From Candidatus Berkelbacteria bacterium (GTDB taxonomy: Bacteria > Patescibacteriota > UBA1384 > XYA2-FULL-43-10 > 1-14-0-10-43-13), in assembly GCA_037143235.1 (NCBI GenBank), contig JBAWZC010000001.1, forward strand, positions 1,132 to 65,131: a stretch of 64,000 nt of DNA. Reading direction: 5' to 3'. The notes beneath the pieces are model-generated. The model was not told where the DNA came from. It worked only from the letters and a program-made list of their open reading frames with translations, and ran no database searches. Below, one piece after another: positions 7,168-57,039 of the stretch; position 1 is the first letter of the stretch, and each line of letters starts with the position of its first letter. A program made the translations under genes and the position numbers.

Positions 7168-7243
7168 TGGTGGACCCAACAGGATTCGAACCTGCGACAT
7201 CCTCGTTGCAAACGAGGCGCTCTACCAACTGAGCTATGGGCCC
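7168..7243 (-). tRNA. tRNA-Ala (anticodon TGC)
   Basis: Reverse complement GGGCCCATAGCTCAGTTGGTAGAGCGCCTCGTTTGCAACGAGGATGTCGCAGGTTCGAATCCTGTTGGGTCCACCA. Cloverleaf with G3:U70 Ala identity pair, anticodon loop TTTGCAA, encoded CCA, and an intrinsic terminator hairpin right after the 3' end. Confidence 0.9.
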
Positions 7244-7434
7244 TTATATTAAATTTTCCAATTACCCCTACTTCGCCCATCCTTCATTAAAATTACGGAC
7301 GGCACAGCAAGGCTACGCAGGGCAGGCAAGTAACAATAACCAACAAAGTCACAAATACCAAATTGCAATTCCCAAATATCTTACATCAAAACAGCTTGTT
7401 TTTCAAGGTTCGATGTAATATATTTATCATCTGA

Positions 7435-7468
7435 GGGCCTATAGTTAAGCGGTATAACAGGGCACCCC
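7435..7468 (+). pseudogene. Degenerate 5'-half copy of tRNA-Ala (acceptor 5' strand plus D-arm only)
   Basis: GGGCCTATAGTTAAGCGGTATAACAGGGCACCCC aligns with nt 1-30 of the tRNA-Ala(CGC) 44 nt downstream (GGGCCGGTAGTTCAGCTGGTAGAACACTGCA), then loses tRNA structure. Confidence 0.45.
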
Positions 7469-7511
7469 AAAAAGTACGCTTTGTATTTCGCACCCGCCTG
7501 CCATAGCATGT

Positions 7512-7587
7512 GGGCCGGTAGTTCAGCTGGTAGAACACTGCATTCGCATTGCAGAGGTAGAGGGTTCGAGTCCCTCCCGGTCCACCA
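7512..7587 (+). tRNA. tRNA-Ala (anticodon CGC)
   Basis: GGGCCGGTAGTTCAGCTGGTAGAACACTGCATTCGCATTGCAGAGGTAGAGGGTTCGAGTCCCTCCCGGTCCACCA. G3:U70, anticodon loop TTCGCAT, T-loop TTCGAGT, encoded CCA. Candidate promoter TTGTAT-17-TAGCAT upstream. Confidence 0.85.
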
Positions 7588-13756: not shown

Positions 13757-13790
13757 CAAAAAAATCTCCCCACTGGGGAGATTTTTTCTT
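13757..13790. terminator. Bidirectional intrinsic terminator (AAAAAAATCTCCCCACTGGGGAGATTTTTTC)
   Basis: Perfect 8-bp GC-rich stem flanked by an A-run and a T-run. It terminates the 16S transcript (minus strand) about 150 nt after the rRNA 3' end, and any plus-strand read-through from the GIY-YIG cassette. Confidence 0.7.
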
Positions 13791-13937: not shown

Positions 13938-15524
<1,587 letters not shown>

Positions 15525-17726: not shown

Positions 17727-17872
17727 TGTAAGCCCTCGTTAATAACCGATCAAACATAATTCAAATAAATTCAAAAAATACTATTTTTAAACTTAATCTA
17801 GATTGTCACAATACTAATTGTATCAAACTTGATTTGATGGTGGTGGGCAAGATGCCCACCACCCGACACATT

Positions 17873-18058
17873 TCATTCAGCAGTTAGCTCAGCTAACTGC
17901 TGTTGTTCTTCCTGAGCCAAGCATGGAGTATCGTATTCAAAACAACCTCCTGCCCATGTTCCATGAAAGTACTTCCCCTCAATATTCGCAAGAGGATCAC
18001 CTCCGGCGCAGTAAGGGCATTTCTTCCCAGCCGATTCTACGATTTCCCCTTTACTCAT
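17873..18058 (-). CDS. Small Cys-rich hypothetical protein (61 aa; CPYC...C...C)
   Basis: SD-like AAGGGG upstream; followed by the hairpin GGGTGGTGGGCATCTTGCCCACCACC. Confidence 0.35.
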   Translation of the reverse strand: MSKGEIVESAGKKCPYCAGGDPLANIEGKYFHGTWAGGCFEYDTPCLAQEEQQQLAELTAE

Positions 18059-18311
18059 GAAAATTCCCCTTTTCCCTGATTTTGAGCAGTATGCTCAATA
18101 CGCAAATACTACCACAAAGATGCAGATAAACAAGAGGAAAAACTATGGTACCGAAAAACCCTAATGGTAATTCAAACATAACAAAAATATGTACGAGTCA
18201 AGTATCGAGTTTGATTCTTGGGCACTCGCATGATATATTGACCAGTACCAACCTCTGAGGTCACCGGTCTTTGACTGGCTGCGCCCACCGTAGGTTGATA
18301 GCCTTCCACCA

Positions 18312-18350
18312 CCTCTGTATAGAGGTGGTGGAGTCTTTTTATTTAATCAC
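18312..18350 (+). terminator. Plus-strand intrinsic terminator (CCACCACCTCTGTATAGAGGTGGTGG followed by AGTCTTTTTATTT) converging on the clpP 3' end
   Basis: 11-bp perfect stem followed by a T-run on the plus strand only. This implies a short plus-strand transcript in 18060-18340 (possible sRNA or 37-aa ORF). Confidence 0.5.
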
Positions 18351-41135: not shown

Positions 41136-41512
41136 AATTTCCTTAATTCCTAATTATAATAAATAATAAATAATAAATATCTAAATTACCAATTTCCAAA
41201 TCAATATTCAAATAATCAAATATTCAATAAATAAATGACTAATTGAATAAATGGTTAAATGACTAAATAACTATTTGAGTCTTCGACACTTCTCTTTTTT
41301 ACCTCACCCATTCGACTGGCTCCGCTATGCGGAGAGAGAATTGAGACGAATGTGACGATTCCCCCTTGAAAATCATTACTTGATTACACTACCACAGTCT
41401 TGATTTATTATCAAGTAAGTGATACTATTGTTCTAGTTGATTGGGAATCACCCATCAACATATTTATTTTTTATATTCATTTGTATTAATTTAGGCTCAG
41501 CCAAACAAAATT

Positions 41513-41806
41513 ATGAAATCAATCCACCCAGCTTATCACGCCAAAACAACTATCACCTGCGCCTGCGGTGCTTCTTTTCCAGTTGGATCGACCAGAGACG
41601 ATCTCCATGTTGATGTTTGCTCTGCCTGCCACCCTTTCTATACTGGCAAAAAGAAATTGCTTGATACTGCCGGACGAGTTGATAAATTCAGAGCCAGAGT
41701 TGAAACTTCCAAGAAACTACAGGAAGCCATCGCCATCAAAAACGCCAACAAAAAAGTTGAGCCTGAAGTCGAAGCTGTATCTGAAGAGACCACTGAAGCC
41801 AAATAG
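41513..41806 (+). CDS. rpmE: 50S ribosomal protein L31 with a C-terminal KE-rich extension
   Basis: MKSIHPAYH...CxC...[11 protein letters not shown] zinc-ribbon L31 signature. An intrinsic terminator follows at about 41826-41872. Confidence 0.85.
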
Positions 41807-41928
41807 CTTTTCTATATATGAAAATCGGCCAAAGTTCGATATAATTCGAACGAAGCCGATTTTTTAGTTATATGATCGATGGAACAGTAAACTGGTTATT
41901 GCATCTTAGTTGATAAAGCAGAAGGACG

Positions 41929-52087: not shown

Positions 52088-54172
<2,085 letters not shown>

Positions 54173-54325
54173 TTATCATATAAATTAATCTCTCATCTGG
54201 AACCACCTTTTTCACCTTAGAGGCGGAAGATGTGGTTTTCGAGAAGATCGATAAATTATATTATATAATTACAGTTTACTAGAGCCGATAATTAGCACAT
54301 ACAATCAAATAGATCCTGACAATTA

Positions 54326-54354
54326 TTGACATAATACTACAACAGTGCTATAAT
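54326..54354 (+). promoter_or_regulatory. Consensus sigma-70 promoter: TTGACA, 17-bp spacer, TATAAT
   Basis: Perfect -35 (54326-54331) and -10 (54349-54354) hexamers with optimal spacing. No protein-coding gene lies downstream on this strand. Confidence 0.65.
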
Positions 54355-54360
54355 ATGCGC

Positions 54361-54622
54361 AGCAACGGTGAGAGACCAAATATCTTCACTCGTTGCCGCG
54401 GAGGAGTCAGCCCTCGTAATAAAGCTGACTATATTTCAGCAGCTGTGCGTTTAAGCTGTTGAATGAGAGCTCATGGATTGAGCAAATCGTCCCCTTGGGT
54501 CTGACGCATCAGGCAAAGGGTTGTCCTGCTGCCAAGCAGGAGAGAGTCGTAAGGCTCGTCGTAAAAATCAGGTATACACAACCAAGCTCCCCGTCCGTTA
54601 AGGACGGGGAGACGCTTTTTTT
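54361..54622 (+). ncRNA. Unassigned roughly 260-nt ncRNA between the consensus promoter and a strong intrinsic terminator
   Basis: Terminator CTCCCCGTCC-gttaa-GGACGGGGAG plus T7 at 54587-54622. The interval has only tiny ORFs without SD, and several internal hairpins (GCAGCAACG...CGTTGCCGC, AGTCAGC...GCTGACT, CCTGC-UGCCAA-GCAGG). No motif of RNase P, tmRNA or SRP RNA recognised by eye. Confidence 0.45.
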
Positions 54623-54699
54623 ATAAGAACAAATAAGCTGTAATATTGTCACCAAAATTCACGCAAAGATCTGTGGAGATTTGTTTCCCAACACTTCTT

Positions 54700-55365
54700 C
54701 TAAACTTCTACACTTTCGCCCCAGCCCAGCACTTTTACTTGAATATCAGTATCGTCCATCGAGCTCTCAAAATCCTGCACATCGACAGGAAATCTTGAAT
54801 TGTCGTAATGGATCGGGATCACAAGCATCGGATTAGCAAGAAGCACCTGCTCTCTGGCAGTCGCGATATCCATCACCACCTGACCGCAAATAGGTGCGGC
54901 GATAATATTGGCTCCTGTTTTTTGGTCTAAAAATGTTGAATCACCAGGAGTATAGAATCTACTTTTTCCATCATCGATCACAACGCCAACAACCTCGGGC
55001 GGAGTATTTCCGTTTGGCAAAGGACCGTGTTCTGAGACAACTCCTTCGATTTTAATATCAGACAATTCGAATGTCATACCAACCTCATTTACTCGACAAT
55101 CCAAGTCTGGATATTCTTCTCTCGCTGTTTCGATGACCGCTATTGTTCCAAGCATGACTGGCCCATTCATCTCAATTATTTTTTGAACATTTTCCCAATC
55201 GAAATGGTCAGAATGTTCATGGGTAACAATAATTACATCAATGTCGCTAAAATCTTCAGCTTTCATCCCCTCTTCAGCAAAAACATAAGTTCCCGGATCG
55301 ATCAAGATCTTCGATTTCTCTGTTTCAACCAAAAAACAGGACTGTGCATGCTTGGTGATAATCAT
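54700..55365 (-). CDS. MBL-fold metallo-hydrolase
   Basis: THEHSDH (HxHxDH) motif; 221 aa. Confidence 0.75.
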   Translation of the reverse strand: MIITKHAQSCFLVETEKSKILIDPGTYVFAEEGMKAEDFSDIDVIIVTHEHSDHFDWENVQKIIEMNGPVMLGTIAVIETAREEYPDLDCRVNEVGMTFELSDIKIEGVVSEHGPLPNGNTPPEVVGVVIDDGKSRFYTPGDSTFLDQKTGANIIAAPICGQVVMDIATAREQVLLANPMLVIPIHYDNSRFPVDVQDFESSMDDTDIQVKVLGWGESVEV

Positions 55366-55404
55366 GTTGCTTCCTTTCGCAAAATTTAGAATTTATTATT
55401 CAGA

Positions 55405-56094
55405 TCAAGGCTTTCTGGCACTAACTATCGAATACAGACCCATCTGCCTTTCGAGTTTAATATTTACAAAACCCGCCTCCGCCAACTCTTCCATGTGCTC
55501 ATATATGGTGTCTAAGTTGCTAAAATCTTCTTTTTCGTGCTTAGTCCATTTTTCGCAGAGATCGTCCCTACTGATTCCTTTCAAAACAGCAAGGTGATCA
55601 ATTCTTGCATTGTATTTTTCGGTATATTCATCCACTCTTTTTTCATCCACCATTTTATCACCGTTTATATACAAACCATTTTCACCAAGTTTATCAAAAA
55701 CAATTTTCAGCAATTCTTTTCTTCGATCTTTGGCAATGTTATGAATGGTTAAAACTGTGACAAGCACATCAAAATTCTGTTCATTTTGCAGAACATCGAT
55801 AACATCACCCTCTCTAAAAAGACAATTGCGATATGATTTCAGCCTATCCTTGGCAATGTCGATCATCGCTGAATCAAAATCGTTGAGAGTTATAATTAAA
55901 TTAGGAGCAACATTGAGCAAACCAATAGCGGTATTGCCGGTACCACAACCTGCATCAAAAACAGTCGAATCATCCTTATCAATATAGTCCTTGACCAAAT
56001 CGGAAATTACTATCTGAATTTTTTTATCATTTTCGTCAATCAGATTCTCGAAAATCTGATAATCATCGGCCCAGCCTTTGAAACGGTTATTCAT
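55405..56094 (-). CDS. Class I SAM-dependent methyltransferase
   Basis: VFDAGCGTGN motif I. Start trimmed to ATG 56094 (the track start was TTG). Confidence 0.65.
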   Translation of the reverse strand: MNNRFKGWADDYQIFENLIDENDKKIQIVISDLVKDYIDKDDSTVFDAGCGTGNTAIGLLNVAPNLIITLNDFDSAMIDIAKDRLKSYRNCLFREGDVIDVLQNEQNFDVLVTVLTIHNIAKDRRKELLKIVFDKLGENGLYINGDKMVDEKRVDEYTEKYNARIDHLAVLKGISRDDLCEKWTKHEKEDFSNLDTIYEHMEELAEAGFVNIKLERQMGLYSIVSARKP

Positions 56095-56148
56095 TATTGT
56101 CCTAATATAATATTGCAGTTGATAGCCAGACCAGTATATTTTTCGCAA

Positions 56149-57039
56149 CTATTTCATCCCACGCAAGATTTTTACTCGCTCCTCGATCGGTGGATGAGTT
56201 GAGAACAAATTGGCAAAGAATGAAGTTGATTTGCCATTTGGATCACCGATGAAGAGATGAGAAGTCGAAGTACTAATATTTTGCATTGGCTCTTTGTAAG
56301 AACCGATCTTTTCCAAAGCTGATGCCAGCCCCTCCGGGTATCGAGTTAAGAGTGCGCCAGAAGCATCTGCCAAGTATTCACGCTTGCGGGAGATCGCCAG
56401 CTGGACGATCATGGCAACAATAGGGGCTAAAATAATTGCGACAATACCAATCAGCGCCATAATACCGCCACCGCTATTATTATCATTATCTCTGCGCCCA
56501 CCAAAGAAAAATTGAAATCGCCAAACTAAGTCAGCCAGTAAAGCAACGACGCCGACAAGAACAGAGACGACCATCATCAGACAAATATCGTAATTTCCAA
56601 TATGTGACATCTCGTGCGCAACAACGCCCTCTATTTCACTTTTATCCAATTGCTCAAGAAGCCCAGTGGTCACCGCCACAGATGATCTGGATGGATCACG
56701 GCCGGTCGCAAAGGCATTTGGCGCAGGATCATTAATAATATAAACTTTTGGCATCGGCAGTCCAGCCGTGATAGCCAGGTTTTCGACCAAATTCCACAGC
56801 AATGGATTATCCTTTTTCTGGATTTGCACCGCACCAGAAGCAGAAAGAGCAATCTTGTCACCTGCGTAATAGCTAATTGTCGTTTGAACGATCACCACAA
56901 CTAGTGCAATAACGAAAAACAAAGAATTTCCGTAAACATAGGATAAGGTCCAACCAAGTCCCATCACAAAAATGACAAAAAAGATCATGATAAAAACAGT
57001 ACGCCTCTTGTTTTCGTCAATGTGAGTATATAAGTTCAT
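56149..57039 (-). CDS. htpX: Zinc metalloprotease HtpX (M48)
   Basis: HEMSH zinc motif and 4 TM helices. Confidence 0.85.
   Translation of the reverse strand: MNLYTHIDENKRRTVFIMIFFVIFVMGLGWTLSYVYGNSLFFVIALVVVIVQTTISYYAGDKIALSASGAVQIQKKDNPLLWNLVENLAITAGLPMPKVYIINDPAPNAFATGRDPSRSSVAVTTGLLEQLDKSEIEGVVAHEMSHIGNYDICLMMVVSVLVGVVALLADLVWRFQFFFGGRRDNDNNSGGGIMALIGIVAIILAPIVAMIVQLAISRKREYLADASGALLTRYPEGLASALEKIGSYKEPMQNISTSTSHLFIGDPNGKSTSFFANLFSTHPPIEERVKILRGMK

Follow-up and report, generated by a model that had tools for sequence, protein, structure and literature searches.

A 64,000-nt stretch of DNA from Candidatus Berkelbacteria (Patescibacteria/CPR), here called the window, contains between positions 54326 and 54622 what is probably a stand-alone, lineage-specific gene for a non-coding, structured RNA that is made from the + strand and acts in trans. 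As far as its sequence can tell, it is a credible candidate for a previously unclassified, lineage-specific sRNA gene, and its broad kind, the independent bacterial sRNA gene, is a known one. The original prediction took the interval for a stand-alone RNA gene of unknown identity, and at the level of sequence analysis this core reading is supported, having survived comparison with Rfam, the search for a downstream gene, the search for small ORFs and protein homology searches.

Promoter, terminator and predicted transcript

The elements that delimit the putative gene are the following.

54326..54331, + strand, -35 hexamer TTGACA, found by sequence inspection and consensus scan
54346..54354, + strand, extended -10 element TGcTATAAT, with a 17-nt spacer from the -35 hexamer
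54361..54622, + strand, predicted transcript of about 256-262 nt, placed by the promoter/terminator geometry
54587..54622, + strand, intrinsic terminator with a 10-bp stem (8 G-C pairs), loop GUUAA, then ACGC and U7

TTGACA, a 17-bp spacer and TATAAT at 54326-54354 had been singled out as the only perfect promoter, and a window-wide consensus scan bears this out. The TATAAT lies at 54349-54354 and is preceded by the TG of an extended -10 element at 54346-54347. The resulting TTGACA-17-TGnTATAAT at 54326-54354 is the sole site between 50 and 60 kb that agrees with the sigma-70 consensus at all 12 of 12 positions, and relaxing the match to one mismatch brings up no other site on either strand of the 64 kb window. 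Dinucleotide shuffles of the window give an expectation of 0.62 sites at one mismatch or fewer, and we estimate that a perfect 12/12 promoter would be expected by chance roughly 0.02 times per window. The 16S gene in the window has TTGACA-17-TACTAT upstream, which is of the same consensus type, and thus the organism appears to use such promoters.

The terminator hairpin lies about 233 nt downstream of the promoter and agrees with the earlier description of a 10-bp stem and a T7 run at 54587-54622. Its stem arms, CTCCCCGTCC and GGACGGGGAG, occupy 54587-54611 around a 5-nt loop and are followed by ACGC and T7 to 54622; 8 of the stem pairs are G-C, and the hairpin, at -22.6 kcal/mol, ranks as the top terminator within the region. 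The T-run is confined to the + strand, the sequence on the - strand side being CTTGGTTGTG, so the terminator is unidirectional and serves + strand transcription. We let the predicted transcript begin 7 nt past the -10 element and end within the U-tract.

Predicted fold of the RNA

The RNA body has a GC content of about 0.50, compared with 0.33-0.37 in the adjacent spacer. The 262-nt transcript has an MFE of -109.3 kcal/mol, compared with -75.7 +/- 4.6 kcal/mol in 200 dinucleotide shuffles (z = -7.3), and none of the 200 shuffles folds as well. Among all 262-nt windows on both strands from 40 to 63.7 kb it has the lowest MFE, the runner-up reaching -91 kcal/mol. The predicted fold is a chain of seven local hairpins (H1 to H7), an unpaired tail and the terminator, and each of the seven is stable by itself, at -5.2 to -12.9 kcal/mol. 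The GC-richer segment with several stable internal hairpins that had been noted between promoter and terminator is thus clearly present. Its parts are as follows.

54362..54396, + strand, H1, 5'-terminal hairpin from +2, -12.9 kcal/mol
54400..54405, + strand, GGAGGA, a Shine-Dalgarno-like hexamer between H1 and H2, mostly unpaired
54405..54430, + strand, H2, 7-bp perfect stem with a 12-nt loop (CCUCGUAAUAAA), -8.1 kcal/mol
54436..54462, + strand, H3, 9-bp stem with a 9-nt loop, -11.9 kcal/mol
54463..54490, + strand, H4, two-tier hairpin with apical loop UGGAU, -8.0 kcal/mol
54492..54520, + strand, H5, two-tier hairpin with a CGCA loop, -12.8 kcal/mol
54524..54541, + strand, H6, 7-bp stem with a GCCA loop, -10.8 kcal/mol
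54544..54557, + strand, H7, 5-bp stem with the GNRA tetraloop GUAA, -5.2 kcal/mol
54558..54583, + strand, unpaired 26-nt tail (GUCGUAAAAAUCAGGUAUACACAACC), -0.2 kcal/mol, essentially unstructured

Two parts of the predicted fold are single-stranded. The GGAGGA hexamer is part of a linker rich in GC, CCGCGGAGGA, and is not followed by a start codon; the 3' end of the 16S gene in the window carries CCUCC, which is complementary to the hexamer. The 26-nt tail may possibly be a seed or a protein-binding segment.

G-U pairs make up only 4 of the 78 that are predicted, and the reverse complement also folds well, at -98.9 kcal/mol, with the + strand ahead by 10 kcal/mol. With so few G-U pairs and so well-folding a reverse complement, the structure alone proves neither the strand nor selection at the level of RNA, and our grounds for assigning the RNA to the + strand are the promoter and the T-run. 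Hairpins that are so nearly perfect in their Watson-Crick pairing could alternatively be young DNA palindromes.

Coding potential

None of the + strand ORFs in the interval, down to a length of 10 aa, has a Shine-Dalgarno sequence, and the 35-aa ATG ORF starts at 54355, upstream of any start that this promoter can give. Neither the 35-aa nor the 55-aa ORF has a match in Pfam. The 55-aa frame, compared with 1.84 billion representative proteins, gave a low-complexity match only and nothing convincing, and the concatenated six-frame translation found no match among 5.8 billion proteins. The - strand has SD-like strings at just two ORFs, of 36 and 21 aa, both with a TTG start; the strings are buried in hairpins, and neither ORF is hydrophobic. 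Another TTG ORF on that strand, of 48 aa, has no SD. A type I toxin-antitoxin pair was considered and rejected, there being no small hydrophobic ORF with a ribosome-binding site that overlaps the RNA on the opposite strand. The ORF/SD scan, Pfam and the six-frame searches all agree with the earlier statement that no plausible ORF or SD lies between promoter and terminator, and it is hardly credible that the interval encodes a small protein.

Comparison with known RNA families

At the gathering score, and apart from three tRNAs and the 16S gene, Rfam 15 has no match in the 64 kb window. When the threshold is relaxed to E <= 10 for positions 54250-54700, just two sub-threshold matches appear, to the PyrG leader (21 bits, where the cut-off is 65 bits) and to ncr1175, and both lie on the terminator hairpin. 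ARAGORN finds three tRNAs and no tmRNA in the window. RNase P RNA, SRP RNA and tmRNA are thus rejected, none of them having an Rfam covariance-model match and ARAGORN reporting no tmRNA. A riboswitch, T-box or other cis-regulatory leader is rejected as well, with no match to an aptamer or leader model and no downstream gene on the same strand. The original prediction had failed to recognize RNase P, tmRNA, SRP or a riboswitch by eye, and had proposed an Infernal/Rfam scan; Rfam 15 and ARAGORN agree with the eye, and the scan assigns the RNA to no known family, cis-regulatory or other. Two candidates had been offered in their place, and they fared differently: a lineage-specific sRNA is favoured by a lack of homologues and by a position in a lineage-specific insertion (below), and 6S RNA is not, since RF00013 gives no match and a rod-like fold scores at the level of shuffled sequences (below).

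The RNA resembles the Csr/Rsm RNAs (CsrB, RsmY/Z) in its beads-on-a-string series of short hairpins, its own promoter, its intrinsic terminator and one GGA loop; it differs from them in having neither GGA enrichment nor an Rfam match. There are 6 GGA motifs in the RNA, compared with 4.1 +/- 1.5 in dinucleotide shuffles (P = 0.17), and only one of them lies in an apical loop (H4, UGGAU). As GGA is neither enriched nor generally found in the hairpin loops, and as Rfam gives no match, a Csr/Rsm sponge RNA is not supported. The hexamer UCGUAA occurs in three copies, which is not significant either (P = 0.12). With neither motif significant, no protein-binding motif is demonstrated.

Genomic context

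Both neighbours of the putative sRNA gene are on the - strand, in agreement with what had been seen originally. One is ligA at 52088-54106, whose product carries all the NAD-ligase domains, and the other is an MBL-fold hydrolase gene at 54700-55365, which is the next gene downstream of the RNA and convergent with it; past 54622 the + strand of the window has no ORF of 120 aa or more. The gene order is GatB, PPIase, GatA, PHP, LigA, the RNA, MBL, SAM-methyltransferase, M48 peptidase, an ORF of 124 aa with no Pfam match, LemA, S41/C39 peptidases and FtsX, a neighbourhood of housekeeping genes. PADLOC gave weak domain-level matches only, and thus no sign of a defence-island context. An imperfect 10-nt direct repeat, GCT(A/G)TAATAT, flanks the RNA unit and may well be due to chance.

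In two relatives (L004 and L006) the M48 gene directly adjoins ligA, and in four others (L002, L040, L041 and L042) other, unrelated genes occupy the gap between them. These differences show the M48/LigA junction to be a variable spot, and on the evidence of gene order the methyltransferase, MBL and RNA genes are its lineage-specific filling. LigA is 100% identical to a protein annotated in a Candidatus Berkelbacteria MAG. Beyond that, identity in the database falls to 67% for the closest LigA and to 59-60% for the closest other MBL protein, and the 90% clusters of LigA and MBL have a single member each, so the host is a lone lineage. The contig is carried by metagenome run SRR7053653 (ENA assembly ERZ27300156).

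Search for relatives

To look for homologues we fetched 34 LigA loci from GTDB species genomes together with the contigs of the closest LigA and MBL relatives. Searches of these loci and of the window with the RNA, by nhmmer and blastn, found only the locus itself. The nine closest LigA loci, the MBL-relative loci, 37 metagenome loci and 13 viral loci yielded no homologue, and relatives do not have the RNA at the syntenic position. Two single-sequence covariance models, R1 (H1-H4) and R2 (H5 to the tail), were run against the window and about 10 kb beyond it, the CPR-relative loci (filters off) and the metagenome and viral loci, and again only the locus itself was recovered. There is no second copy of the RNA in the window or in the approximately 10 kb beyond. 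A second strongly folding gap, at 17727-18338, holds a small protein gene and is not a paralogue.

Wider collections gave a similar picture. The only blastn match in phage and plasmid collections is a promoter-like one of 31 nt, four scans of viral contigs (with three 16- to 18-mers from the RNA and with the triple UCGUAA pattern) returned chance seed matches only, and a metagenome scan with the GC-rich linker and the H2 loop returned 37 matches, none of them with extended similarity; the scans of genome and metagenome collections had no positive control, the source contig being absent from those collections. Our statement that there is no homologue thus covers the syntenic site, about 0.6 Mb of fetched DNA and the exact-pattern scans. 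Conservation in related genomes had been suggested as a check on the original prediction, and its outcome in the fetched loci fits a lineage-specific sRNA candidate. The same lack of homologues counts against the RNA-gene reading, which thus draws no support from conservation or covariation.

Proposed expression and mode of action

We infer that the RNA is transcribed, where its ends lie, that it acts in trans and that it does so by binding protein, and these points fit together as follows. A sigma-70-type holoenzyme would start about 7 nt past the extended -10 element, at roughly 54361, and would transcribe approximately 260 nt before stopping at the strong intrinsic terminator, with a 3' end at roughly 54616-54622. 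The transcript would fold co-transcriptionally into its seven independent, nearly perfect local hairpins. Its stability would come from the terminator hairpin and from the one that begins at +2, and its abundance from the promoter. It would remain untranslated, and with no same-strand gene downstream it would have nothing to regulate in cis. The RNA gene probably arrived or arose together with the methyltransferase and MBL-hydrolase genes at the M48 peptidase/LigA junction.

Its action in trans may be that of a structured protein-binding or scaffold RNA, in the manner of the 6S, Ms1, Y and Csr RNAs, although it would be a member of none of these groups. We lean weakly toward such a mode over that of a short base-pairing riboregulator, given the size of the RNA, its seven hairpins, its single long unpaired stretch and a target complementarity that does not rise above that of shuffled sequences (below). 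It is no firmer because none of the binding motifs reaches significance and because the window represents only a small part of the genome.

Alternative explanations

The alternatives rank, in decreasing likelihood, as a base-pairing sRNA, an orphaned unit, a structure of the - strand or of the DNA, a 6S-type RNA, a guide array and a small protein. The strongest of them, though in our judgement unlikely, is that the RNA is a trans-acting sRNA that controls translation or stability by pairing, through its tail or its GGAGGA linker, either with mRNAs or with the anti-SD of 16S rRNA, the hairpins serving mainly to stabilize it. The layout is the classic one for such RNAs (own promoter, unpaired segment, intrinsic terminator), the GGAGGA does complement the CCUCC at the 16S 3' end, and with trans-encoded sRNAs in general our RNA shares a sigma-70 promoter of its own, a Rho-independent terminator, an intergenic position, the lack of an ORF and a narrow range. 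However, the best duplex of its unpaired segments with any of the 52 translation-initiation regions in the window has an energy of -20.9 kcal/mol, compared with -20.7 +/- 2.0 kcal/mol for shuffles. With its seven hairpins and about 260 nt the RNA is also large for the class, exceeding typical base-pairing sRNAs two- to threefold in length and being far more highly structured. The usual chaperones, Hfq and ProQ, are generally not reported in CPR genomes, which would also count against this reading. Rather less probable is a non-functional or orphaned unit, that is, a leader or attenuator left behind by gene loss or inversion, or the structured end of DNA inserted along with the methyltransferase and MBL genes, its promoter and terminator having lost their function. 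Its position in a lineage-specific insertion at a junction that varies among relatives, the lack of conservation wherever we searched, the nearly perfect Watson-Crick hairpins that resemble young palindromes and the flanking imperfect repeat, which is perhaps there by chance, are all in keeping with such an origin. Yet a perfect promoter and a terminator that exactly bracket a structured segment are unlikely to persist unselected in a reduced genome, the sequence has no riboswitch, leader or T-box signature, and there is no mobile-element gene among the Pfam-scanned genes (spanning about 10 kb toward LigA and 8-9 kb in the other direction), no tandem array in the window and no second copy there or in the approximately 10 kb beyond.

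An intercistronic stabilizer or terminator cluster at the 3' end of the LemA-M48-MTase-MBL operon, or a group of REP-like palindromes, with a + strand promoter that is merely incidental, could explain why the reverse complement folds almost equally well and why the MBL gene, on the - strand, is immediately followed by this region. We consider this very unlikely in view of the T7 run, which only the + strand has, the unique perfect promoter directed into the structured segment, the better fold of the + strand (by 10 kcal/mol) and the fact that the sequence, unlike REP elements, is unrepeated elsewhere. A divergent RNA of the 6S (ssrS, RF00013) type, or of the Ms1 type of actinobacteria, would sequester RNA polymerase. 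6S RNAs are variable in sequence and hard to detect in CPR genomes, and the likenesses include a stand-alone gene, a strong housekeeping sigma-70 promoter, a structured non-coding product of a few hundred nt, its presumed abundance and a plausible protein-binding mode. But RF00013 has no match at 54250-54700 even at E <= 10, the duplex between the 5' and 3' halves reaches -54 kcal/mol compared with -50.4 +/- 5.0 kcal/mol for shuffles, and in the partition function the sole long-range pairs with a probability above 0.2 form a weak 3-bp GCG/CGC contact. The predicted fold is instead a string of local hairpins with neither the rod-like closing stem nor the central bubble of 6S RNA, and the RNA is longer than typical 6S RNAs and has no known relatives. 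A 6S identity is thus disfavoured, and we regard RNAs of this type as a highly improbable explanation. Finally, a string of hairpins might be a guide-RNA or repeat-type array (TIGR stem-loop, CRISPR-like, bridge RNA or omega RNA) that serves an RNA-guided protein. TIGR systems do occur in CPR bacteria (Faure et al. 2025, PMC12045711), and one type has a variable palindromic stem-loop array that ends in an intrinsic terminator (PMC12045711), so that host, tandem variable hairpins and terminator are all alike. TIGR arrays are defined, however, by alternating 8-12-nt repeats, or by hairpin loops with two 8-12-nt spacers flanked by box C/D motifs (PMC12045711). Alternating repeats are absent from 54300-54650, where only chance two-copy matches occur; the loops of 4-12 nt are too small for two such spacers plus box C/D motifs, and no box C/D-type motif recurs. 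No tandem-repeat array is present in the window, and the genes scanned with Pfam (again about 10 kb toward LigA and 8-9 kb in the other direction, with three genes lacking any Pfam match) encode no Nop/Tas, Cas, TnpB/IscB, IS110 or reverse-transcriptase domain. A guide array is thus extremely unlikely, and a stand-alone, trans-acting structured RNA is the explanation we prefer.

Significance

The RNA gene is a single unconserved candidate in one MAG, and our survey of the literature on non-coding RNAs of CPR/Patescibacteria found essentially nothing relevant. There is a slight chance that the RNA is the first member to be seen of a class of structured RNAs in Patescibacteria that has yet to be described, abundant and of housekeeping type, for example a functional analogue of 6S/Ms1, or a ribosome/SD-decoy RNA that would use the exposed GGAGGA. 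Its relatives would then be too diverged, or too differently placed in their genomes, for exact-pattern and local-locus searches to find.

For the stand-alone RNA gene that we favour, the practical value lies in an annotation as 'ncRNA candidate, not in Rfam 15' and in a seed for homology searches. CPR genomes are reduced, and thus a strongly promoted, structured RNA of 260 nt is unlikely to be kept in one without use. The importance of the finding would grow if a conserved CPR family were found or if the RNA proved to be a dominant transcript. The regulatory and structural RNAs of the CPR are almost unstudied, and if this RNA is transcribed and is conserved in more Berkelbacteria, it would offer an entry point to the RNA biology of a lineage that is not culturable alone.

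Sequences flanking the candidate RNA gene

The neighborhood of the RNA gene contains the following features.

54106, - strand: ATG start codon of LigA
54113–54141, - strand: promoter-like TTGATA-17-TACAAT, separated at its end by 7 nt from the A of the LigA ATG
54347–54356 and 54637–54646: 10-nt imperfect direct repeat GCT(A/G)TAATAT, one copy on either side of the RNA unit, spacing 290 nt

Because the promoter-like site ends so close to the LigA start codon, the LigA mRNA is possibly leaderless, and LigA may thus be transcribed as a leaderless message divergently from the RNA gene. The direct repeats that bracket the RNA unit are probably there by chance, and they could alternatively be a vestige of the unit's insertion; TAAGCTGT is likewise recurrent, at 54452 and 54634.

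The M48 peptidase–LigA junction (window 54107–57039) is variable among the Berkelbacteria-like relatives whose loci around LigA were fetched. The two genes are immediate neighbors in L004 and L006, and the junction is filled by differing genes in L002, L040, L041, and L042. In the window, the M48 stop abuts the methyltransferase start (56148/56149), an arrangement which suggests that the methyltransferase has been incorporated into the M48 operon and now belongs to it. In L040 (relative JGI 3300014205), a non-coding stretch 5′ of LigA, at 1440–1700, carries two tandem 40-nt units with GGAGTCGAGATGACA, a partial third copy and an inverted copy, as well as a perfect 20-nt palindrome, CCTGCCTGCCGGCAGGCAGG; this stretch has no sequence kinship with the RNA studied here.

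The source genome of the window is absent from the scan results for both genome_contigs and metagenome_contigs, the sequence collections scanned for relatives, so negative scans there are without a positive control. The closest LigA locus in the scanned collection is 67% identical, and the RNA locus itself was not retrieved by the metagenome pattern.

Other features of the window

Elsewhere in the window, we note further features.

13759–13787: symmetric A6-hairpin-T6 bidirectional terminator, ~150 nt beyond the 16S 3′ end
13939–15524, - strand: 16S rRNA gene, matched by the Rfam model
17873–18058, - strand: 61-aa Cys-containing ORF, MSKGEIVESAGKKCPYCAGG..., with a good SD and a strong terminator hairpin

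The ORF lies in the 612-nt gap between ClpP and the M29 peptidase and has no Pfam match; it accounts for the second-best folding region of the window. An AT-rich gap of 793 nt (41136–41928) separates the divergent rpsB and prfA, with several degenerate tandem repeats of 14–16 nt at 41156–41278. Two divergent tRNA-Ala genes, with anticodons TGC and CGC and ~270 nt between them, lie within 7168–7587.

Around position 186 of the Rfam model, an insertion of ~120 nt sets the 16S rRNA gene apart from that model. There are no 23S or 5S genes in the 64-kb window, and so the rRNA genes seem to be unlinked.
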